Positions 38,658-51,482 of a stretch of DNA of 64,000 nucleotides are shown here, piece after piece. Source of the stretch: an uncultured Trueperaceae bacterium (GTDB taxonomy: Bacteria; Deinococcota; Deinococci; Deinococcales; Trueperaceae); NCBI GenBank assembly GCA_963799485.1, contig CAWCXJ010000013.1:224001-288000 (forward strand). Reading direction: 5' to 3'. The position numbers and the translations under genes are program-made. Each line of letters begins with the position of its first letter. Positions within the stretch are counted from its first letter, which is position 1. The notes under the pieces were generated by a model. That model saw nothing but the letters and a program-made list of their open reading frames with translations, was not told the DNA's origin and ran no database searches.

Positions 38658-40196
38658 GTGCCGGATTTCGATGTCATTACCGTTGGGGCGGGTCACAACG
38701 CGCTGATTACGAGCGCGTACCTCGCGCAAGCAGGCTACAAAGTAGGGGTTTTCGAGCGGCGCGACGTGGTGGGCGGCGCGGTTTCGACCAAGGAAATCGT
38801 ACCGGGCTACCAGTTCGATTTAGGCGGCAGCGCCCATATTTTAATTCGCTTGACGCCGATTGTCCAGGAGCTGGGGTTGGAGCGGTTCGGCCTCGAGTAC
38901 ATCGACATCGACCCGCTGTTTTTCGCCCCTTACGACGACGGCGAGAGCGTGTTTATCTACCGCAGTGAACAGGCGACGATAGACGGGCTCGAGCGCACCT
39001 ACCCCGGCGAGGGCGAAGCCTACAAACGCTTTATGGACGACTGGCGGCCTTTCGGTCAGGCCGTCAAAGAGCTGTTTTTAAGCACGCCGAGCCCCTTTAA
39101 CCTCGGCAAAAAGATGATTTTCGGGCGTGCGATTAAGGGCGACTGGAAACAGGCGCTTAGCAAAATCCTCAAACCTTACGGCGAAGTGGTTGACAGCTAC
39201 TTCAAAGAGGAGCGGGTCAAGACGCCTTTGGTCTGGATGGCGGCGCAGTCGGGGCCGCCGCCCTCGGAACCGTTTTCGTCGCCGTTCGTGCTGTGGCAAC
39301 CCTTGTACCACGAAGGCGGGATGGCGCGGCCCAAGGGCGGCTCGGGGATGCTGACGCAGGCGCTGGCGCGGCACATCGAAGCGCACGGCGGGCAGATTTT
39401 TACGGACGCGCCGGTCGAGAAGATTTTGGTCGAAGGAACAAAGGCCACCGGGATTGAGGTAGCTGGACAGGTCTATACAGCGCGCACAGTCGTCGCCGGG
39501 GCGCACGCCTTGGAGACCTTCGGCAAGCTCCTGCCCGAAGAACACCGCCCTGAAAGCAGCAAGAACATGCGCGTCGGCAACGGTTTCGGCGCGGTTTTAC
39601 GGCTGGCTTTAGACGCGCCCGTGCGTTATACCGCCCACCCCGGCGACGAGGCGCGGCGGGCCTTGGGTCTGTTGTGCCGCGACCGGGCGCAACTGAGCGC
39701 GGCCTACGGCGACTTTTTAGCCGGTCGGCCCGCATCCGACCCGCCGATTGTGGCGATGAGTTTTAGCGCGGTAGACGACACGCTGGCCCCGCCCGGCGGC
39801 GAAGTGTTGTGGCTCTGGGCGCAGTATTTTCCTTATGAACTGGTCAAGGGCGCACGCTGGGCCGACATCGAAGACGAGGTAGCCGAGAGCATTTTGGACG
39901 CCTATGAGGTTTACGCACCCGGAACGAAAGCGAAGGTCGTCGGCAAACTGTTTCAACACCCGGAGTGGCTCGAGCGTCACTTAGGTCTCTTCCGGGGCAA
40001 CGTCATGCATTTAGAGATGAGTTTGGATCAGATGTTCGCCCTGCGGCCCTTTCTGGGCATGGCGGAGTACAAAACGCACCTCAAAGGGCTTTACCTGACC
40101 GGCGCGAGTACGCACCCTGGGGGCGGCATCATGGGCGCGTCGGGACGCAACGCAGCGCGGGTCGTCTTAAAAGACCTCGAGAAGAAAAAGGTTTGA
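38658..40196 (+). CDS. crtO: Carotenoid ketolase CrtO (FAD-dependent, CrtI superfamily)
   Basis: GAGHNAL...[30 protein letters not shown] and [19 protein letters not shown] closely resemble Deinococcus CrtO as recalled. First gene of the carotenoid operon. Confidence 0.8.
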
Positions 40197-40200
40197 GCCG

Positions 40201-40614
40201 GTGAGCCGTTACGCCGTAAAAATGCAAACTCCGAGTGTCGAAGATTACATTTGCATTCGCCTCGCTGCCGGACTCAGCCGCAAAACTGAAGCAGCGGCGA
40301 CGATTGGCCTGAAGAATTCGCTTTTTGCCGTTACGGTTTTTTACGGCGCTGAAAGGGTTGGCGTAGGCCGGGTGATCGGTGACGGCGGCTGTTTTTTTGA
40401 AATCGTCGATATTGCCGTTTTGCCCGAGTATCAAGGGAAGGGCGTCGGCAAAAGCATCATGGACGCGCTTATGGTCTATATCCGCGAACACGCGCCCAAA
40501 AGCGCCTATGTAAGCCTGATGGCGGATCACGGCACGCCTGACTTTTACGCGAAGTTCGGCTTTCGTAAAGCCGAAGCGCCTCACGCGGCGGGCATGTACC
40601 TGCGCGTCTCGTGA
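40201..40614 (+). CDS. GNAT family acetyltransferase
   Basis: [26 protein letters not shown] and FYAKFGF motifs. Confidence 0.92.
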
Positions 40615-40629
40615 CCCACTCGTAATTCG

Positions 40630-42081
40630 ATGACCTACTTGCAATTCCACTTCGTTTTTATCTTGCCGCCGCTGCTTTTACTTGCGCTGCTGACGTGGCG
40701 TTCTTGGCGGCGGGGACAGGTGGCCCAGGCCGGACTCGTCGCCCTTGGTGTTCACGTCCTCTTGGCCCTCGTCTACACGACGCCGTGGGATAACCTGCTG
40801 GTGGCGCGCGGCGTGTGGGGTTACGGCGAAAACCGGGTGCTCTTTACGCTCGGCTTTGTGCCGTTTGAAGAGTATCTGTTTTTTATCTTGCAAACGCTGC
40901 TGACGGGGTTGTGGGTGCTGCTTTTGCGCCGCCGTCACCGGGTCGGTAATCTGGTCAATCATCCGGTTGATGTCCCGGTACCTGAATCCCGGAAAACCGC
41001 CGTCCGCCTTGTCGGGGCGCTGGTATGGCTCGGTTTGGCAGCGGCGGGCGTGCTGGCTTTGACGACGCCGCGCGGGTTCTATTTCGGGATGATTGCGGCG
41101 TGGGCTGCGCCGATTCTGGCGCTTCAGTGGGGTTTCGGCGGCGACCTGCTGTTACGGCGACCTTACGTTCTACTCGCCGGATTCCTGGTACCGACGCTCT
41201 ATCTGTGGGTAGCCGACCGTCTGGCGCTGGGTCTGGATATCTGGTGGATTTCACCGGAACTCTCATCGAATCTGGCGATTTTCGGGCTGCCCGTCGAAGA
41301 AGCGCTCTTTTTTCTGCTGACGAACCTGCTGGTCGTTTTCGGGCTGACGCTGGCTTTGGAACCCGCGGCGATGGCGCGTCTGCGCGCCCTCCGCACGCTC
41401 AGCCCGTGGCGTTTCGTGTTGGGCTTGTGGGCGCTCTCGATGGTGCCGACGCCGCTCTTTCCGGATTATTTTGCGGCGCTGGCTTATCTCAGCACCGGCC
41501 TTCTGACGCTCGGCGTGTTCGGGTACGCGCTGTCGCGTTACGCTCACAAAGCCTGGCTGCTGTTTACGGCGGCCTTCGGCTTTGGGCTGCTGGTCGAATG
41601 GGTCGGATACACGACCGGCGTCCCGTTCGGCGCTTACGACTACACTGCGCCGGGGCCGCAGCTTTTGGGGGTGCCGCTGCTGGTGCCGCTCGGCTGGTTT
41701 GCGTTTGCCTTGATCGGCCTCGAGCTCTCCCCGCCCGGCAGCAAACGCTGGCTCGCGCCGCTGGCTTTGGTCGCCTGGGACGTGGGGCTCGACCCGCTGA
41801 TGGTTTCGCAGGGGTTCTGGGAGTTTGACCGGGGTGGGTACTACGGCATCCCGCTGAGCAATTTTCTGGGCTGGTTCGTCGCCGGAGCCGTGCTCGTGAC
41901 GCTGCTGGGGTGGCTCGAGCCCCGTCTGCTGCAAAACACTTCGCCCGACTTACGCGCCGTGTTTTGGGCGCAGGCATTTCTTATCAGCGTCGGGCTGCTA
42001 TTTTACGGCCTGCCGTGGGCGGCGTTGGCGGCGTTTGTAGCGATGGGGTCGGTGGGGCTGTTGGCAAGCCGGGTTTTATGA
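40630..42081 (+). CDS. Membrane lycopene cyclase (tandem CrtYc/Yd-type domains) fused to CruF-like carotenoid 1,2-hydratase
   Basis: TYLQFHFVF, YTTPWDN...WGY, VPFEEYLFF and LPVEEALFF cyclase repeats, then a CruF/DUF422 region: EWVGYTTGVPFGAYDY, GVPLLVPLGW, WDVGLDP, GIPLSNFLGW. Confidence 0.82.
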   Translation: MTYLQFHFVFILPPLLLLALLTWRSWRRGQVAQAGLVALGVHVLLALVYTTPWDNLLVARGVWGYGENRVLFTLGFVPFEEYLFFILQTLLTGLWVLLLRRRHRVGNLVNHPVDVPVPESRKTAVRLVGALVWLGLAAAGVLALTTPRGFYFGMIAAWAAPILALQWGFGGDLLLRRPYVLLAGFLVPTLYLWVADRLALGLDIWWISPELSSNLAIFGLPVEEALFFLLTNLLVVFGLTLALEPAAMARLRALRTLSPWRFVLGLWALSMVPTPLFPDYFAALAYLSTGLLTLGVFGYALSRYAHKAWLLFTAAFGFGLLVEWVGYTTGVPFGAYDYTAPGPQLLGVPLLVPLGWFAFALIGLELSPPGSKRWLAPLALVAWDVGLDPLMVSQGFWEFDRGGYYGIPLSNFLGWFVAGAVLVTLLGWLEPRLLQNTSPDLRAVFWAQAFLISVGLLFYGLPWAALAAFVAMGSVGLLASRVL

Positions 42082-42779
42082 ACGCCTACTTTGCTTCGCT
42101 TGCGGCGCGTTTACGGGCACGGCTGACGGCGCTGATCGCCTGGAGCTTGCCCTTTTTGATCCGCCGCTCGTTAGCCCGTGATCTGCACGGCGTTTACGCT
42201 AAAGGCGACTGGAACGGCCTCTCGCCGGGTGGCGCAGTGTTGGCGGCGAACCATCACAGCTGGTGGGACGCGTATCTGGCGTGGTTTATCGGACAAAAGC
42301 TGAGGCGGCCTCTAAGCGGCTTGATGCTTCCTGAGACCTTGGGGCAGTTCCCCTTTTTTCGCCAGCTTGGGGCCGTACCGACGACCGAACTGCGCGAAGC
42401 GCTCCGGCGTTTACAACGTGGCGAACTTTTGGTTGTGTTTCCTGAAGGCGAGCTGCGCTCAGCCGGGTACGTGGAAGTTTTGCAACCGGGTTTGGGGTTT
42501 CTGGCGTCGCGCGCCGCCGTGCCGGTCTATCCGGTGGCGATTCGCGCGGTGCTGCGCGGGGCGCAGCGCCCGGAAGTATTTATTATTTTAGGGGACGCGG
42601 TCGCTCCGGAAGAGGTGGCGGGGGCGCTGAACGGGCTTTTGGCGGGGTTGGGGCGTGAGCTGGCCCAAGCCAACCCTGAAAAACCGCTGCCGGGGTTTGT
42701 GTGCTGGCGCGGCGGCGCAGCGAGTACGAACGAACAGGCCGCCTGGGTAGGTAAACTACTCGGCAGGAGGGCGAGATGA
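42078..42779 (+). CDS. PlsC-type acyltransferase (CruD-like carotenoid glucoside acyltransferase)
   Basis: ANHHSWWD and VFPEGE motifs. ATG 42078 overlaps the upstream stop codon. Confidence 0.85.
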   Translation: MNAYFASLAARLRARLTALIAWSLPFLIRRSLARDLHGVYAKGDWNGLSPGGAVLAANHHSWWDAYLAWFIGQKLRRPLSGLMLPETLGQFPFFRQLGAVPTTELREALRRLQRGELLVVFPEGELRSAGYVEVLQPGLGFLASRAAVPVYPVAIRAVLRGAQRPEVFIILGDAVAPEEVAGALNGLLAGLGRELAQANPEKPLPGFVCWRGGAASTNEQAAWVGKLLGRRAR

Positions 42780-43882
42780 GCTTATTCGGTTGGCTGGTGT
42801 GGGGGTTGGTAACGCTGGCGGTCACGGCGCAACTCGCCGTGCTTCTGGTCAACACCTTTACCTTTCCTGTTTTAACTCCTCCGCAGCGTGCGCCGGAACA
42901 GGGCCGCCGCGTTTCGCTGCTCGTCCCGGCCCGGAACGAAGCCGTCAACCTCAGCGAAACGCTGCCGCTGCTGCTCGCGCAAGGCGCGGATGAGATACTG
43001 ATTTTGAACGACGACTCGGAAGATGAGACGGCGCAGGTCGTCGCTGAATCCGGCGTCAGATGTATAAGCGGCAAACCCTTGCCGCCCGGTTGGACGGGTA
43101 AAAACTGGGCCTGCTGGCAACTCGCGCAAAAAGCCAGCGGTGACATTCTGGTTTTCACCGACGCCGACGTATCGTGGGAACCGGGGGCGCTGGCGTCACT
43201 TTTAGTGTTCGCCGAACACGGCGACGCGGTTTACGCGAGCGTCTGGCCCCGGCAACGTACCGAAACACTCTTTGAACGCCTCAGCGTCCCGGTGATCGAC
43301 CTCGTGCTGCTCGGCCTCTTACCGTATCCACTTGTGCAGCGCACGACCGACGCCGCGTTTTCAGCGGGCAACGGGCAGTGCATGATGTGGACGCGGAGCG
43401 CTTACTTGCAGGTCGGCGGGCACGCGGCTTTCAAGGACGAAGTGTTAGAAGACGTAAAGATGGGGCAATACGCCAAGGGGCGCGGCCTCAAAACGGTGCT
43501 GGCTTTGGGCGGTGAGCTTTTGAGCGTGCGGATGTACCGGACGCGGGGGGAACTCTTGGAGGGTTTCTCGAAAAATATTCTGGCGGCGCATCAGGGCAGC
43601 CGCACTTTGCTGCTGTTGTCGCTCGTACTCAACACCCTGATGTACACGCTCTCGTGGTTCCTGACCTTGTTGAACCCGCTCTGGCTTATTCCGGCGGCGC
43701 TCGGGCTGTTTCAACGTGCTTTAACGTCTTACAAAACGCACCGGAGCCCGCTCGAGGCATTTTTGCAACCGTTCGTCTTCGTCCCGCTCTGGCAGATTGG
43801 TTTACGGGCACTTAGACATAAAGGTTATCGTTGGAAAGGTCGTTTTTACGGCGACGCCGAAACCTCTGAAGCACATGACTAA
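42776..43882 (+). CDS. GT2 glycosyltransferase (CruC-like carotenoid glucosyltransferase)
   Basis: VPARNE, LPPGWTGKNWAC, FTDAD, AGNGQC, LEDV, RMY and WKGR motifs, plus operon context. Confidence 0.85.
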   Translation: MSLFGWLVWGLVTLAVTAQLAVLLVNTFTFPVLTPPQRAPEQGRRVSLLVPARNEAVNLSETLPLLLAQGADEILILNDDSEDETAQVVAESGVRCISGKPLPPGWTGKNWACWQLAQKASGDILVFTDADVSWEPGALASLLVFAEHGDAVYASVWPRQRTETLFERLSVPVIDLVLLGLLPYPLVQRTTDAAFSAGNGQCMMWTRSAYLQVGGHAAFKDEVLEDVKMGQYAKGRGLKTVLALGGELLSVRMYRTRGELLEGFSKNILAAHQGSRTLLLLSLVLNTLMYTLSWFLTLLNPLWLIPAALGLFQRALTSYKTHRSPLEAFLQPFVFVPLWQIGLRALRHKGYRWKGRFYGDAETSEAHD

Positions 43883-45308
43883 ATCACTTAAACCCCAGAC
43901 GGCGCTGGTTTTGGGCGGCGGCTTTGCCGGACTGTCGGCGGCGCTCGAGTTAACCCTCAGCGGCGTTCAGGTCACGCTGCTAGAGCAACTTGACGAAGTA
44001 GGCGGTAAAGCCGGTGAGTTCACCGACGGCGGCTTTCGTTTCGACCTCGGCCCGAGCGTCTGGACTTTGCCCGAACTCGTCACCGATTTGTTCGTGCGGG
44101 CCGGGGCGACGCCGCCGGAGTTTAGGCCGCTGTCGCCCCTGTGCCGCTACATCTACTCGTCCGGGCGCGTTTGGGACGTGTCTTTAGACGCTGAACAAAC
44201 CGCCGCGCAGTTGTCCGACGCAGAAGCCGAGGCGTTTTACCGGTTGAGAGATGAGGCCCGCCTGCTTTACGAAGCGGCTGCCCCGACGTTTTTATTCGGG
44301 CAATCGCCGGGACTCAAAGAACTGGCACGTTACGGCCTTTCGGCTGGACTTAAGGCCCATCCGGGCAAACGCCTTCCGGCGTTGTTACGGCAATTTGGCG
44401 CAACCGGCGACTTGGAGACCTTCTTTTTACGGTTCGCGACTTACTTCGGCGCCGACCCCTACCGCGCCCCGGCGGTGCTGCACAACATCGCCTGGGTCGA
44501 ACTCGGCAAAGGGGTGTTTTATCCGGTCGGCGGCATCAAAGGGGTGGTGCGGCAGCTCCGGGCGTTAGCGGAAAAGCTGGGCGTCGAGGTCTGCACGAAT
44601 GTTACGGTGACGCGGCTCTGCACCTCGGGGTCTAAAATTACGCAGGTTGAAACGGACGCCGGAGATTTTACGGCGAACGTCACCGTGTCGGGTCTGGACG
44701 TTATCCGCACACATCAACTACTCGGTAAAGTAAAAGGGGAGAGGCTCGAGCCCTCCTTGTCCGGTTTCGTCTTGTTGCTGGGTCTAGACGCTGAAACGCC
44801 CGGTCTGGCCCATCACAACATCTCGTTTCCGGCGGACTACCGCGCCGAATTCGAAGCGGTGCGGCGCGGCAAGCTTGCCGACGACCCGACGCTCTACATT
44901 TCCATCAGCAGTAAAACCGAGCGTAACGACGCGCCGCCGGGGTGTGAAAACTGGTTCGTGCTGGTCAACGCGCCTGCACTCTCGGCAGAGCGTCCGCTGG
45001 ATTGGGAACGCGAGGCTCCGCACTATGCTGGGCATGTGCTCGCGGTTTTAGCGCGGCGTGGGTTGGACGTGCGTGAACGTATCCGGGTACAAAAGACCTT
45101 TTCTCCGGCATATCTGGGCCGCCTTGCCCACCGGGGCGCGATTTACGGCGCTGCGCCGCATTCGCTCCTCCAGACGATTCGGCCCGGGCAGACCGTAAAA
45201 GGTGTTAAGAATCTGGTGCTGGCGGGGGGGACGGTGCATCCGGGAGGCGGGATTCCGTTGGCGCTGTTATCCGGAAAGCACGCAGCGGCGCTTGCTTTGA
45301 GCATGTGA
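43875..45308 (+). CDS. CrtI/CrtD-family carotenoid desaturase (probably CrtD 3',4'-desaturase)
   Basis: GGGFAGLSAA, GFRFDLGPS, FATYFGADPYRAP, APPGCENWFVLVNAP and GGTVHPGGGIPL motifs. Start ATG 43875. Confidence 0.85.
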   Translation: MTKSLKPQTALVLGGGFAGLSAALELTLSGVQVTLLEQLDEVGGKAGEFTDGGFRFDLGPSVWTLPELVTDLFVRAGATPPEFRPLSPLCRYIYSSGRVWDVSLDAEQTAAQLSDAEAEAFYRLRDEARLLYEAAAPTFLFGQSPGLKELARYGLSAGLKAHPGKRLPALLRQFGATGDLETFFLRFATYFGADPYRAPAVLHNIAWVELGKGVFYPVGGIKGVVRQLRALAEKLGVEVCTNVTVTRLCTSGSKITQVETDAGDFTANVTVSGLDVIRTHQLLGKVKGERLEPSLSGFVLLLGLDAETPGLAHHNISFPADYRAEFEAVRRGKLADDPTLYISISSKTERNDAPPGCENWFVLVNAPALSAERPLDWEREAPHYAGHVLAVLARRGLDVRERIRVQKTFSPAYLGRLAHRGAIYGAAPHSLLQTIRPGQTVKGVKNLVLAGGTVHPGGGIPLALLSGKHAAALALSM

Positions 45309-45631
45309 TACACCTTATCGCCTTTGGAGGAGAGTTCTCTGGGCCGGAAATGAACTAGGCTCTACAGCTAAACTTCAATGCAAAAGTGAGGTTGTTTGCC
45401 AAAGTCGTCATAAATTACGTTTCTCAAAGCCCCGAAAAGGTTACCTTGGACGGTCGAGCCGTAAAGTTCAGCGGTGCAAAATAACGCCGTGCGGGTGAGC
45501 TACCAAGATGATGGGGAGCGGCACGCGCTCGAGCTGAGTATTTAAGACAGCGATATAAGACAATCCGCTACCGGGCAAATGCCAAATAATTACCAGCCGG
45601 GTTGCTTCTTTTTGCTTATGGTAGAACTCTT

Positions 45632-46048
45632 ATGCCGCGAGTATTTCAAGAAATTGCTTACGAAAGCCTGAACGCAAGGCAAAAGGAGAGCTACAATTTC
45701 CAAAAGTTTTCTGCTGTGCTTGCCGATTACGGCTTTATCACCATCAAGTTGAGCGATGATTGGCACGGTGCGGATTTTATCGCGCAACATCTACACGGCG
45801 AAACTCTAAAAGTTCAATTGAAAGGCCGACTCACATTCCACAAAAAATATCAAGGCAAAGACTTGTGGCTTTGCTTTCGTGAAGACAACGAATGGTATTT
45901 TTATCCGCATGATGAATTGTCGGAGAGATTCTTAGCGGAAACGAACATTGGAAACACGGAATCTTGGGTGAAGTATGGCAGTTACTCGTTTTCTTATCTT
46001 TCCCAACAGCGTAAGAAGATGCTCGAGCCTTACCGATTTGTGGAGTGA
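45632..46048 (+). CDS. Hypothetical protein, PD-(D/E)xK nuclease-like
   Basis: Helix E..F.....L..YGF, then GADFIA and KVQLKGR, which fit a D-(x)n-QxK catalytic pattern. AT-richer than its neighbours. Confidence 0.6.
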   Translation: MPRVFQEIAYESLNARQKESYNFQKFSAVLADYGFITIKLSDDWHGADFIAQHLHGETLKVQLKGRLTFHKKYQGKDLWLCFREDNEWYFYPHDELSERFLAETNIGNTESWVKYGSYSFSYLSQQRKKMLEPYRFVE

Positions 46049-46410
46049 ATCGTATGGACAGAATCGAGAAGGCGTTTGCCGATTACTTCGAGCCTTGGAG
46101 CCTTGTCTTACCCGAGGGGGCGACGGCTGAAGAAAAGCCCGGTGTCGTCGTCGGGGAAGGCTGGCACATTCGCTACATATTCGGGAGCGATGAGCAGGGC
46201 ACATACTTGGATTTTCTCGCCAGCCACCGCATGACAAACGAGCGCCACATTCGTCTACGTGCCAGCGGGAAAGTTGAAGGACTTCCTGCGATACGGGAGG
46301 GGTACGTGTGGAACGGCACTGAGGAAGACCGGCAGCGCGCCGAGGCCGAGTACCTTGCATACAACCGTCAGATTGGCGAGATGCTACGCGAGAAGGGTTT
46401 GACAGACTGA
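46045..46410 (+). CDS. Hypothetical protein
   Basis: 121 aa with a GTGA overlap to the upstream gene. Contains YLDFLASHRMTNERH. Confidence 0.7.
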   Translation: MNRMDRIEKAFADYFEPWSLVLPEGATAEEKPGVVVGEGWHIRYIFGSDEQGTYLDFLASHRMTNERHIRLRASGKVEGLPAIREGYVWNGTEEDRQRAEAEYLAYNRQIGEMLREKGLTD

Positions 46411-46465: not shown

Positions 46466-46714
46466 TTAGCTCTCATCATCTGGAAGCTCGAGTATTTTTT
46501 CTTCGGTCTCAGCTACGTCTTCAGCGTCCATCCCAAGTTGCCGCGCCTGAGCTAGCGTGTAACCCAAAAGGTCACTATGTTCTTCGCTGTTCGAAGGGAG
46601 CGTTTTAAGCTGTTGCCAAGACGCAAGATAAGCCTGGGCGTTTTCAGCCAGCTCATCCAGCAGAAATGTTCTGTGCTCGACTAGACTGTCCAGATTTTCA
46701 GCCGTGCTGCTCAC
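46466..46714 (-). CDS. Small acidic helical protein (module 2 partner; putative antitoxin/immunity)
   Basis: 82 aa, paralogous to 46944..47189, with a GTGA overlap to 46711..46905. Confidence 0.75.
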   Translation of the reverse strand: MSSTAENLDSLVEHRTFLLDELAENAQAYLASWQQLKTLPSNSEEHSDLLGYTLAQARQLGMDAEDVAETEEKILELPDDES

Positions 46715-46905
46715 TTTCCACCTCCGGGTAGTCTGGCTGCAAGTCTAGCGTAAATGCGTGCGTGTTTGGCAATGTCAGCTTGCCATTTCTCAATCGCGCG
46801 GCGGCTGGGATAGGTCTCGAGGTCATCCGCAATCTTTTTTTCGTGGACGGCAATCTGCTTGAGTTCACCTGCCAGCTGTTTGCAAGTATTTTTGTTCGTT
46901 CCCAC
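46711..46905 (-). CDS. Small basic helical protein (module 2; putative toxin)
   Basis: 64 aa, 33 identities to 47186..47383 by manual alignment. TAGACT 6 nt upstream of the GTG. Confidence 0.78.
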   Translation of the reverse strand: MGTNKNTCKQLAGELKQIAVHEKKIADDLETYPSRRAIEKWQADIAKHARIYARLAARLPGGGK

Positions 46906-46943
46906 AAGTACAGTCTAGCAAGGCGTATGCGCCGCAAACTATT

Positions 46944-47189
46944 TCACTCTGGTTGCGCATCGTCATCTTGAAGGTCGTCGGTACACGTGTCCATCGCCTC
47001 GATAACGTCTTCAGTATCCATGTGGACTTGCTGAACGTAAGCGTACATCGTTCCTAGCAGCGTATCCGCCTCTTCGCTTTCCGGGGGCAGCGCCTCGAGC
47101 TTCTGAGCCAGCTCGAGATAATCCCGGCTGCTACCGGAAAGATGTCTGAGCAGCATCTTTATCCGCCTGGTTTCGACAACTTGACTCAT
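46944..47189 (-). CDS. Small acidic helical protein (module 1 partner; putative antitoxin/immunity)
   Basis: 81 aa sharing LP..SEE...LLG and MD.EDV.E with 46466..46714. ATGA overlap with the upstream gene. Confidence 0.75.
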   Translation of the reverse strand: MSQVVETRRIKMLLRHLSGSSRDYLELAQKLEALPPESEEADTLLGTMYAYVQQVHMDTEDVIEAMDTCTDDLQDDDAQPE

Positions 47190-47383
47190 TTTTTCCTTCC
47201 CGGCAGCTTTGCCTCGAGCTTGGTCTTAATACGTTCGTGGCGAGCAATGTCTTGCTGCCACTTAGAGATATCTTGACGGCTCGGATAGGGTTTGGCAAGT
47301 TCCGCCGCAATCTTTTTTCGGTGTTCTAAGATGACTTGAACCTCGCTCTGAATCTGATTGCGAAGGCGCTTATTCTTTCCCAC
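47186..47383 (-). CDS. Small basic helical protein (module 1; putative toxin)
   Basis: 65 aa with IxEHxKKI, YPSR and KWQxDI motifs. TAGAAT 6 nt upstream of the GTG. Confidence 0.78.
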   Translation of the reverse strand: MGKNKRLRNQIQSEVQVILEHRKKIAAELAKPYPSRQDISKWQQDIARHERIKTKLEAKLPGRKK

Positions 47384-47435
47384 TCGTACATTCTAAAACG
47401 AAGCCTATAGAAAGAAAGCCTGTTTTCTAGACAGA

Positions 47436-48401
47436 TTATTTAGTCGACGCGAGCCGTTCCGGGTGAACCTTCGTCCAATAGCGTTTAAGCCCCATGACCG
47501 TCATCGCGTCGTTACTCGTAATGCTGTGCCGCTCAATTGTTCCCGCCGACGCACCTTCGGCCCCGAGTGCGCCCCGGCTGAGCGCATCAATCCGCGCCGC
47601 TAACGTTTCGTCGTCTTCACCGGCGTTCATGCCATCTAAAATACTCTCGCTCCAGCTTTGGTGTTGGTGCTCGAGTTCCCGAAAATGCTCCGCGACATTC
47701 TCGACCGGGCCGAAGTGCGTGAGCAACAGCTCTTCGGGTTCGACTTGCAACATCGCCTGAATAGAACGGTGCCAGGTCTCTAGATCAGCTTCGGGGGGCG
47801 GCAACGCAGGTCGCACCGTTTCGGCTCCCGGCAAGCGGATTCCGGCGGCGTCCCCCGTAAACATTCGGGTTTTATTTAGCACGTAACTCACGTGATGCGA
47901 GGCGTGACCGGGTGTATAGAGGACGCCGATACGGTGGCCCAAAATCTCCACGGTGTCGCCGTCTCTCACGGGCCGCACTAAGTTTTGCGGCAACGGTTTC
48001 ATCTCGCCCCAGAGCGTGTCCATCTGGTCGCCGTAAATCCGGCCCGCGCTGCTGAGTAACCGGCTCGGGTCGATAAGATGCCCCGCCCCGTTCTCATGGA
48101 CGTACACTTCCGCGCCGTAACGCTGTGCCAACGTCCCGGCAGCCCCGGCATGGTCGAGGTGAATATGCGTGACCAAAACGCTCGTCAGTTTTACGGGGTC
48201 GAAGCCTGCCGCTTGAATCCCGGTCAAAACCGTGTTCAACGTTGACCCCGGCCCCGATTCGATGAGCGCAAAGGTTCCGGCAGCGCCGGGCAGCAAATAC
48301 ACGCCGACGGTTCCGGCGTAGCCCATGTGCTGCGTGTCCAGCAGGAACAGCCCGCCCAAATCTTGCACCGCCGGGATAACGGGTTCGTTTTGACCGCTCA
48401 C
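47436..48401 (-). CDS. MBL-fold metallo-hydrolase
   Basis: THIHLDHAG, TPGHASHH, FTGDAAG and THFG motifs. GTG 48401 overlaps the upstream stop codon. Confidence 0.93.
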   Translation of the reverse strand: MSGQNEPVIPAVQDLGGLFLLDTQHMGYAGTVGVYLLPGAAGTFALIESGPGSTLNTVLTGIQAAGFDPVKLTSVLVTHIHLDHAGAAGTLAQRYGAEVYVHENGAGHLIDPSRLLSSAGRIYGDQMDTLWGEMKPLPQNLVRPVRDGDTVEILGHRIGVLYTPGHASHHVSYVLNKTRMFTGDAAGIRLPGAETVRPALPPPEADLETWHRSIQAMLQVEPEELLLTHFGPVENVAEHFRELEHQHQSWSESILDGMNAGEDDETLAARIDALSRGALGAEGASAGTIERHSITSNDAMTVMGLKRYWTKVHPERLASTK

Positions 48402-50582: not shown

Positions 50583-51482
50583 CTACCGGTTCATAAATGT
50601 ACTAATTGCCGCGACAATTTGCGGAAGATTGGCAGCTACCTGACTACTAGCAACACTGGCTGTGAAGTTGCCGAGCCAAGCTTTTACGCTATCCCCAATT
50701 CCGCGATGTCCACTTTGTTGGTCAGCTATTACAGCTTGCTCGAGCTTTTCAAGGCTTTTCTGCTCCACACCCAAATCTTGCAGGCGGAAAAGCAAACTGT
50801 CTAAATCCTCTATGGTTTTAGTAACAGCTTGTGTAAACTCACGTCCACTCGCTACCGTGTTTTCATCGCCATATATATAATTGTTTACAAGAACCTGAGC
50901 AGTTTGACTTGTGTTAGAATCCGGCGCGCTTTCTGATATATCAAGGTTGGGGTACTGCTCTCGTAACTCCATCAAAAATGTGAGTAATCTATTCCGAGTA
51001 TTATCTAAGATTGTTTGTACCGACACACGTCCTATGTTTCTCTGAGCATCTACATAGACTCCGGGACGATTTTTTTGCTGAAGTTCAAAATTCAGCATCG
51101 TTAGCATGTCGGATGGCCAACTTGCCTTAATGTTATCGCCGTGGTCGTTCTGAAGCAAACCCTGAATACTTGAGACAGATTGCCCGATACTGATGTGTTC
51201 AGCAAAATCTCTCAATTCATCTGATAGGAGAAACAAAGGAATAGGACGATTATGGATTATAGAAGTTATCCCATCGGTGAACGTTCCTACGCTCTGCACG
51301 TTTATATCAGTCCTATACTCCGGCATTATCATACTGCTGTTGTAACCGTTGATTTCTCCCTCAAGCCAAACCTTGAGGTTATCCGCGTGAAGGTTGTAGG
51401 CAAGCACTTTCGCCTTGAGTAATACGGAGTTGAGGGTTACTTGGTCATCAACTACTTGGTTAATAAGCTCATTCAAGGTCAC
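50583..51482 (-). CDS. AbiTii-domain protein (putative abortive infection/anti-phage)
   Basis: N-terminal VLLKAKVLAYNL...WLEGEINGY...PEYR and ILDNTRNRLLTFLMEL match the AbiTii pattern as recalled. Markedly AT-rich. Confidence 0.72.
   Translation of the reverse strand: MTLNELINQVVDDQVTLNSVLLKAKVLAYNLHADNLKVWLEGEINGYNSSMIMPEYRTDINVQSVGTFTDGITSIIHNRPIPLFLLSDELRDFAEHISIGQSVSSIQGLLQNDHGDNIKASWPSDMLTMLNFELQQKNRPGVYVDAQRNIGRVSVQTILDNTRNRLLTFLMELREQYPNLDISESAPDSNTSQTAQVLVNNYIYGDENTVASGREFTQAVTKTIEDLDSLLFRLQDLGVEQKSLEKLEQAVIADQQSGHRGIGDSVKAWLGNFTASVASSQVAANLPQIVAAISTFMNR

Follow-up and report, generated by a model that had tools for sequence, protein, structure and literature searches.

Two tandem copies of a two-gene unit lie on the minus strand of the window (the whole 64,000-nucleotide stretch that was analysed, from an uncultured Trueperaceae bacterium). 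Sequence comparisons indicate that they probably represent an undescribed toxin–antitoxin (TA) family whose minimal toxin is common to polymorphic toxins. Each unit encodes a small basic protein (B) followed by a small acidic one (A), and there is good reason to think that each is a self-contained, toxin-first, type II-like cassette in which B would be a basic-hairpin toxin acting on RNA and A an antidote binding to it. The identification as a TA cassette is, taken by itself, quite probable; RNase chemistry, supposing that B is a toxin, is an evenly balanced proposition based on residue types and on a table entry for the Ntox32 family (see below). A candidate uncharacterised TA or toxin-immunity family had been proposed from the sequence-only reading, and this proposal is supported by the linkage of the two genes, the divergence of the partners, the lack of a match to known TA families and the presence of B at the tips of Rhs proteins. 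The components of the locus are as follows:

47390..47395, minus strand: TAGAAT, -10 box of unit 1, with the GTG 6 nt downstream; predicted leaderless promoter
47186..47383, minus strand: B1, 65 aa, pI 10.6; basic helical hairpin (helices 3–29 and 36–59), predicted toxin
within 47186..47383, minus strand: key residues of B1 (H21, K24, E28, W42 and D45)
46944..47189, minus strand: A1, 81 aa, pI 4.2; acidic helical hairpin (helices 2–33 and 39–77), predicted antitoxin
46912..46917, minus strand: TAGACT, -10 box of unit 2, with the GTG 6 nt downstream; the A1 stop is 26 nt before the box
46711..46905, minus strand: B2, 64 aa, pI 9.8; paralogue of B1
46466..46714, minus strand: A2, 82 aa, pI 4.05; acidic paralogue of A1

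All four of the minus-strand ORFs that had been proposed are present, with 64–65 aa for the B proteins and 81–82 aa for the A proteins, as are the features claimed for their expression: stop and start overlap by 4 nt within each unit (ATGA at the B1/A1 junction, GTGA at the B2/A2 junction) and both -10 boxes, TAGAAT and TAGACT, are located exactly 6 nt before a GTG, that of unit 2 being preceded by TG. The leaderless arrangement deduced from this spacing agrees with what is seen genome-wide: TAnnnT occurs 6 nt upstream of 132 of the 1954 candidate starts (6.8%) as against 0.33% of internal ATG/GTG codons, an approximately 20-fold enrichment, and the 6-nt spacing of both units is therefore the signature of leaderless starts in this genome. 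Leaderless transcription driven by a TANNNT box a few bases before ORFs is described for Deinococcus-Thermus (PMC12340547). No full -35/-10 promoter was found (0 versus 2.0 expected from shuffles), and none of the 25 longest inverted repeats listed covers either promoter. The G+C content of the cassette block is 51%, compared to 59% for the 64-kb window, and its third-position G+C is 0.49–0.61, compared to 0.70–0.71 in two upstream genes, which suggests acquisition. A gene for a protein of the metallo-beta-lactamase fold is situated upstream of the block. A tblastn search of the genome returned just these two copies.

B1 and B2 agree at 33 positions (z = 18.7, a score matched by 0 of 1000 shuffles), so that the 33 of 65 shared positions counted earlier stand. 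A1 and A2, which had been judged diverged yet related, have 29 (z = 10.4; again 0 of 1000 shuffles), and no relationship is seen between B and A (z = −0.8 and 1.0). B2 retains H21, K24, P34, W42 and D45; it lacks the usual L7/R8, has D in place of E28 and a 1-aa deletion near the turn, and its net charge is +6 versus +11 for B1, changes from which B2 is possibly attenuated relative to B1. Duplication of the cassette as a whole had been put forward for the tandem. A recent or local origin is not shown, since neither unit resembles the other more closely than it does cassettes from different genera. Identity between B1 and B2 is 51%, versus best values of 56–62% to cassettes of other genera in the family, and in a tree of concatenated pairs (LG+G4, a short alignment with 27 redundant rows left out) both units fall in one clade with those of loci L030 and L037 (bootstrap 94) without forming an exclusive pair. 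In another genome of the same genus (G066), an orthologue of unit 1 is present and unit 2 is absent at the site; a contig from sequencing run X4 carries unit 1 at ~92% identity and rejoins the window sequence beyond unit 2 (one contig). A recent tandem duplication was thus rejected, because the units are not mutual closest relatives and relatives carry unit 1 alone, and on these comparisons the tandem goes back either to an ancient duplication or to the separate arrival of a second unit in a variable slot. Two plus-strand ORFs of 148 and 121 aa (45602–46410), convergent on the cassettes, partly of low G+C and without Pfam or PADLOC match, are missing at the G066 site and variable in run X4 and so belong to this variable slot. 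Next to them (38658–45308, plus strand) are two FAD-dependent oxidoreductase/desaturase-like genes, a glycosyltransferase-like gene and genes for membrane proteins, a cluster that is probably devoted to carotenoid synthesis and modification (last gene alone scanned).

Homologues of B were collected with a profile built from three sequences. Among 1.84 billion sequences, 108 representatives were retained at E ≤ 0.001, nearly all of ~60–70 aa. Within the window's family, 15 of 101 genomes have B, as do 54 of 301 genomes of its phylum, Deinococcota (18%); A is present in 64 of the same 301. Outside the phylum, record titles locate the pair in Terriglobia, Nitrospira and Ca. Caldarchaeum, i.e. in Acidobacteriota, Nitrospirota and one archaeon. 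Real B matches among 201 Acidobacteriota genomes were confined to a single one (G312, the centre genome), which has six copies, each with A downstream; a second match was spurious. Of 121 Nitrospirota genomes, 11 gave a B match (two of the 11 being spurious), and many Nitrospira genomes have the pair in a very well conserved form. Three weak genome matches (L192, L201 and L202) were discarded as unrelated proteins. The family is therefore widespread yet very patchy. Linkage of the homologues, which the sequence-only reading had left to be checked, was observed across four phyla.

Over 86 pairs the mean identity is 28% for A and 44% for B, in keeping with the faster divergence attributed to the acidic partner, and the median net charge is +9 for B and −6 for A. 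The residues conserved throughout the B family are N4, K5, H21, K24, I25, E28, P34, W42, E/D45, I46, R/K59 and L60; H21 reaches 100%, W42 99%, P34 98%, E28 96%, K24 95%, E/D45 94% and N4 91%. Among the motifs that had been pointed out as shared by B1 and B2, YPSR and LPG are lineage-specific. Conservation in A is mainly at hydrophobic positions and at one Glu (91%), which is His in A1; its histidines are 50–58% conserved, and both A1 and A2 lack them at those positions. AlphaFold models B1 and A1 each as a two-helix hairpin (pLDDT 88 and 92, respectively). On a helical wheel, H21, K24 and E28 of B lie on one edge of helix 1 beside the core, with W42 and E/D45 near the turn on helix 2. In a subgroup of 11 loci (L025, L026, L028, L036, L040, L048, L056, L057, L060, L069 and L072) the likely A start is 46–55 nt inside B and overlaps the second conserved Trp codon of B.

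Searches of Pfam, NCBIfam, PADLOC and PHROGs gave no significant match for B or A. RelE/ParE, MazF, VapC, HicA, HEPN and Fic were absent from the matches of the window proteins and from the top 25 families for 75 B members, and no HTH or RHH family was found among 43 A proteins, the A1 model being a plain hairpin; the family libraries thus uphold the claim that RelE, MazF, VapC, HicA and HTH/RHH signatures are missing. As A has no HTH, RHH or AbrB domain, the usual autoregulation is not apparent. Sequence searches of the PDB returned designed or generic coiled coils alone, neither the B nor the A model had a Foldseek match at E ≤ 0.001, VIA-align yielded a flat list of hairpins (top Z 9.4), and the nearest ESM Atlas clusters are labelled ‘hypothetical protein’. 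No enzyme homologue of B was found, the fold searches returning generic hairpins. A description of the B/A pair was not found in the literature outside subscription papers; a nameless family is hard to search for, so this silence is limited evidence of novelty.

The order in which the two genes decay suggests which of them is the toxin. In the window's phylum, 74 B-anchored cassettes (B matches being merged if their starting DNA was identical) were classed by hand, 19 doubtful ones being checked individually. Both genes are intact in 46. Beside an intact A, B carries a stop, frameshift or truncation in 20 cassettes and a mutated start codon in 2; a further 6 are broken or missing in both genes, and none has an intact B without A. 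With B as the search anchor, this last class is the easiest to detect, and since A is longer than B, assembly errors should strike A at least as often. The binomial P for the 20:0 ratio is 1e-6, a value that overstates significance because the cassettes are related. Two of the 74 are from an unpublished genome (G033; one intact, one doubly broken), and the conclusion is independent of them. At 43 loci of Acidobacteriota, Nitrospirota and the archaeon (one duplicate dropped), 36 have both genes, 4 a truncated B with an intact A and 3 a B remnant without A (one at a contig end), and an intact B alone was again never seen. Conversely, 22 distinct loci have A only (two at contig ends; nine mostly weak or contig-edge A matches were left out): none has an intact B upstream, 4 have B remnants detectable by profile, and damage is seen in some of the A genes as well. 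At the G066 site, an 87-nt deletion (window ~47359–47444) took away the start of the B1 orthologue, promoter and first codons included, but spared A1. Thus, by the intact-without-partner test for type II TA modules, 0 of the 46 intact B genes lack A and 22 defective B genes stand beside an intact A, the decay order expected if B harms the cell without A. Orphan antitoxins left from degraded systems are known for TA families (PMC7354431). Two further loci types were noted: in genome G023 (L010), where no A was detected anywhere, a CRISPR-like repeat array interrupts B at codon 52, and a lysine-rich stand-alone A-like subfamily (L131, L135 and L136), without B upstream, is possibly a domesticated antitoxin.

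Together with this one-sided decay, the occurrence of the B domain as the tip of Rhs proteins makes B the likely toxin. A tblastn search of plasmids with a member of the family gave one weak match (E 0.1), which is the end of WP_192909148.1, a 1,913-aa protein encoded on NZ_CP062791.1, annotated as DNRLRE domain-containing and having RHS repeats and DUF6531. Its last ~55 aa match the B alignment (hhalign 98.3%, E 2e-14), and an 87-aa acidic ORF (WP_192909149.1) follows 12 nt after it. This tip finds three more clusters, RHS proteins of Geobacillus, Peribacillus and the B. cereus group. The Bacillaceae Rhs tips score 47–60 bits against a profile of the stand-alone pairs alone, and profile–profile comparison with B gives 99.3% (E 3e-20). 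The likeness to polymorphic-toxin tips, which the sequence-only reading had proposed, is therefore real (hhalign 98.3–99.3% with Rhs C-termini). On these proteins the hairpin sits after the Rhs core motif, and the region after the DPxG motif of Rhs is a variable toxin domain (PMC10684867); the B domain was thus found as a variable C-terminal tip in front of an immunity-slot gene. That gene resembles A at an hhalign probability of 0.1–1.5% (ranks 1 and 3 of 48). At 64 metagenome Rhs loci found with alignment A8 and having the same core, there are 76 other C-termini in ~15 loose clusters, and none is a B tip. At one locus (L263:3580–3940), an orphan homologue of the Rhs immunity-slot gene lies behind an unrelated Rhs tip and its partner.

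The B domain was also seen in phages. In Streptococcus phage Javan241 and at 18 IMG/VR loci (L206:2959–3404 and L207–L224), a B homologue (46.7 bits against the stand-alone profile for the streptococcal prophage protein) is the last ORF of a variable array whose ORFs begin MGGRG and which is located between an annotated DNA modification methylase gene and the terminase genes. The Javan241 homologue is unannotated and overlaps by 4 nt a 76-aa acidic ORF; this acidic partner has no match to A. Other searches were negative: tblastn with B1 against plasmids and phages, tblastn with the B of L194 against plasmids, a viral scan with alignment A7 and a metagenome scan with the Rhs tip gave nothing, and a word-based search for longer B fusions (alignment A3) gave none, having missed the Rhs fusions later found otherwise. 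Natural fusions of B to A exist (L148 and P0076).

The genes around the cassettes are diverse. Of 163 neighbour ORFs at 55 loci, 146 were scanned and correspond to diverse housekeeping genes. PIN, ParE, CcdA/CcdB, MazF, nucleotidyltransferase, Uma2 or HTH_3 genes are near 10 of the 55 loci, an uncontrolled count, and transposases or an integrase fragment are found at 3. The absence of any RHS family from the 146 scanned neighbours led us to reject the idea that the cassette is part of an Rhs locus. Patchiness, up to six copies and varied neighbours amount to a TA-like ecology.

A mechanism may be proposed on this basis. A leaderless mRNA would start at the GTG of B, and A would be made by translational coupling. 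The basic N- and C-terminal ends of B (N4, K5, R8, K9 and R59) would grip RNA, and a metal-independent cleavage site would be built from H21, K24 and E28, along one edge of helix 1, together with W42 and E/D45 from helix 2, B acting probably as a dimer given its small size; it is this residue layout, with the basic termini, that suggests a metal-independent RNA nuclease. A would pack on B as a four-helix bundle covering that surface. Direct binding of A to B is likely, being favoured by the fusions, the opposite charges, the matching hairpin lengths and the correlated divergence of the two proteins (r = 0.90, confounded by kinship). The cassette would insert between housekeeping genes and persist by addiction for as long as B is active; once B has been lost, A would be free to decay.

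A predicted polymorphic-toxin domain, Ntox32 (Zhang et al. 2012), has some of these features. In the table of PMC3482391 it is described as all-alpha with conserved H, [KR], [ED] and [DE], is found in RHS proteins of firmicutes among others and, by table order, stands under ‘Predicted metal-independent RNase toxins’. B fits this description, with H21, K24, E28 and E/D45 in that order and as the tip of firmicute RHS proteins; the description is loose and could fit another family. Unlike B, Ntox32 is given in its table without an immunity protein, a two-gene stand-alone form or the cassette-bearing phyla. No library model of Ntox32 was hit, and no further treatment of the family was found in the literature searched. 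B may be the stand-alone form of Ntox32, as compared by the table description only. A broader and rather doubtful reading is that the 55-residue hairpin would be a complete His-Lys-Glu ribonuclease, used as a stand-alone toxin, as a WapA/Rhs warhead in Bacillaceae and as a streptococcal prophage cassette, the abundant DUF29 family (below) being a self-inhibited or domesticated relative. If that were true, B would be among the smallest enzymatic toxins, its stand-alone form spanning bacteria and archaea as an addiction or defence toxin.

The main alternative to a nuclease is a non-enzymatic blocker of a nucleic-acid machine: B would be a basic coiled-coil finger that plugs the ribosome, a tRNA or the secondary channel of RNA polymerase, A would be an acidic decoy, and H21 and W42 would be packing or binding residues. 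We hold this to be possible, though doubtful. In its favour, the weak library matches are nucleic-acid-binding hairpins (the tRNA-binding arm of ValRS, matched weakly by 7 of 75 B members with a best E of 0.0012, and uL29 and Gfh1, both among the non-significant Foldseek rows for B), H21 and W42 occupy core positions on the helical wheel or positions next to them, and 64 aa is very small for an enzyme. However, the ValRS, uL29 and Gfh1 matches are non-significant and generic, and the strict conservation of a His, joined on one edge by near-invariant Lys, Glu and Glu/Asp, seems to exceed what a binding surface usually retains at ~44% mean identity.

It is also conceivable that A opposes B without binding it, as in type IV systems, or that B, instead of an addiction toxin, is an abortive-infection effector set free on phage infection. 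An AbiTii gene is 3 kb away, and a B homologue lies within the variable cassette array of the streptococcal prophages. We nevertheless find this unlikely, because the same four observations that favour direct binding speak against it (fusions, charge, hairpin lengths and correlated divergence), because there is no PADLOC match for the cassettes and because three other genes separate them from AbiTii. The AbiTii-domain gene itself (50583–51482, minus strand; Pfam E 3e-32, PADLOC E 1e-32) is in a low-G+C insert (~42%) with an ABC sugar-transporter operon on one side and a gene for a membrane protein on the other.

Slightly less credible still is that the units are shed toxin-immunity cassettes of polymorphic toxin systems, A being kept against the Rhs toxins of competitors and B being decaying baggage. 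This would accommodate the fact that B is a real Rhs tip, the frequency of orphan A genes and the tandem layout, which recalls orphan cassette arrays. It does not explain why B, when it stands alone, begins with a conserved M-G-x-N-K and has promoter spacing of its own, with no remnant of an Rhs core, why almost all of the 108 representatives are ~60–70 aa with no RHS among the 146 neighbours, or why 46 of 74 B genes are intact, and the Rhs immunity gene is not clearly A.

Ferritins have di-iron ligands in an ExxH motif. That B and A form a harmless heterodimer, e.g. a split ferritin-like metal-binding bundle or a small regulator, is very improbable: the best-rmsd structural matches of B are the encapsulin cargo hairpins EncB/EncC (Z 8.3–8.8, rmsd 1.1–2.0), His and Glu are conserved in both proteins, and the stability of the pair in Nitrospira would also fit a useful housekeeping role, but Z below ~13 is uninformative for helical bundles, neither consensus has ExxH (its absence from the column profiles led us to reject EncB/EncC-like cargo), the A histidines are 50–58% conserved and missing from both window copies, and a harmless pair would neither decay one-sidedly nor tip Rhs proteins.

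The toxin-first TA cassette thus remains the preferred reading. HigBA, HicAB and MqsRA are type II TA modules in which the toxin gene likewise comes first. The cassette resembles them in being a small coupled operon with a basic first and an acidic second gene that occur together, in its patchy and multi-copy distribution and in its orphan antitoxins. It differs in having no sequence or fold match to those toxins, and in that both proteins are bare helical hairpins, A being without the DNA-binding domain of most type II antitoxins. With the WapA/Rhs pair WP_192909148.1/WP_192909149.1, the units have in common the hairpin, there the end of an Rhs protein and followed by an acidic ORF 12 nt on; in the Rhs version the turn is 5 aa shorter and ~60 extra residues lie between core and hairpin. 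The window B proteins, stand-alone and of 64–65 aa, are not Rhs/WapA proteins themselves, as secretion signal, RHS repeats and core are all absent from the window genes.

The family is therefore of interest in several respects. It is TA-like and absent from the four libraries searched, yet present in 18% of the sampled genomes of its phylum and in at least 3 other phyla, and it is tied to interbacterial Rhs toxins through a common minimal domain. The locus provides a candidate toxin (64 aa, one invariant histidine) and two diverged cognate pairs on which specificity could be studied. It also suggests what the unvalidated Ntox32 could be, and it provides a lead on DUF29 (PF01724; PDB 3FCN). The central hairpin of the latter aligns weakly with B, including H..K and W..E[IV] (hhalign 66%, E 5.5e-5); 4 of 75 B members match DUF29, with a best E of 2e-4, over the hairpin only and below the Pfam gathering score for the ~140-aa domain. 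Unlike B, DUF29 proteins have 150 aa in a single domain of unknown function, and their status as a distant B relative is a lead only, drawn from these alignments. Tandem DUF29 genes were observed in Azospirillum (L205:8854–9786).
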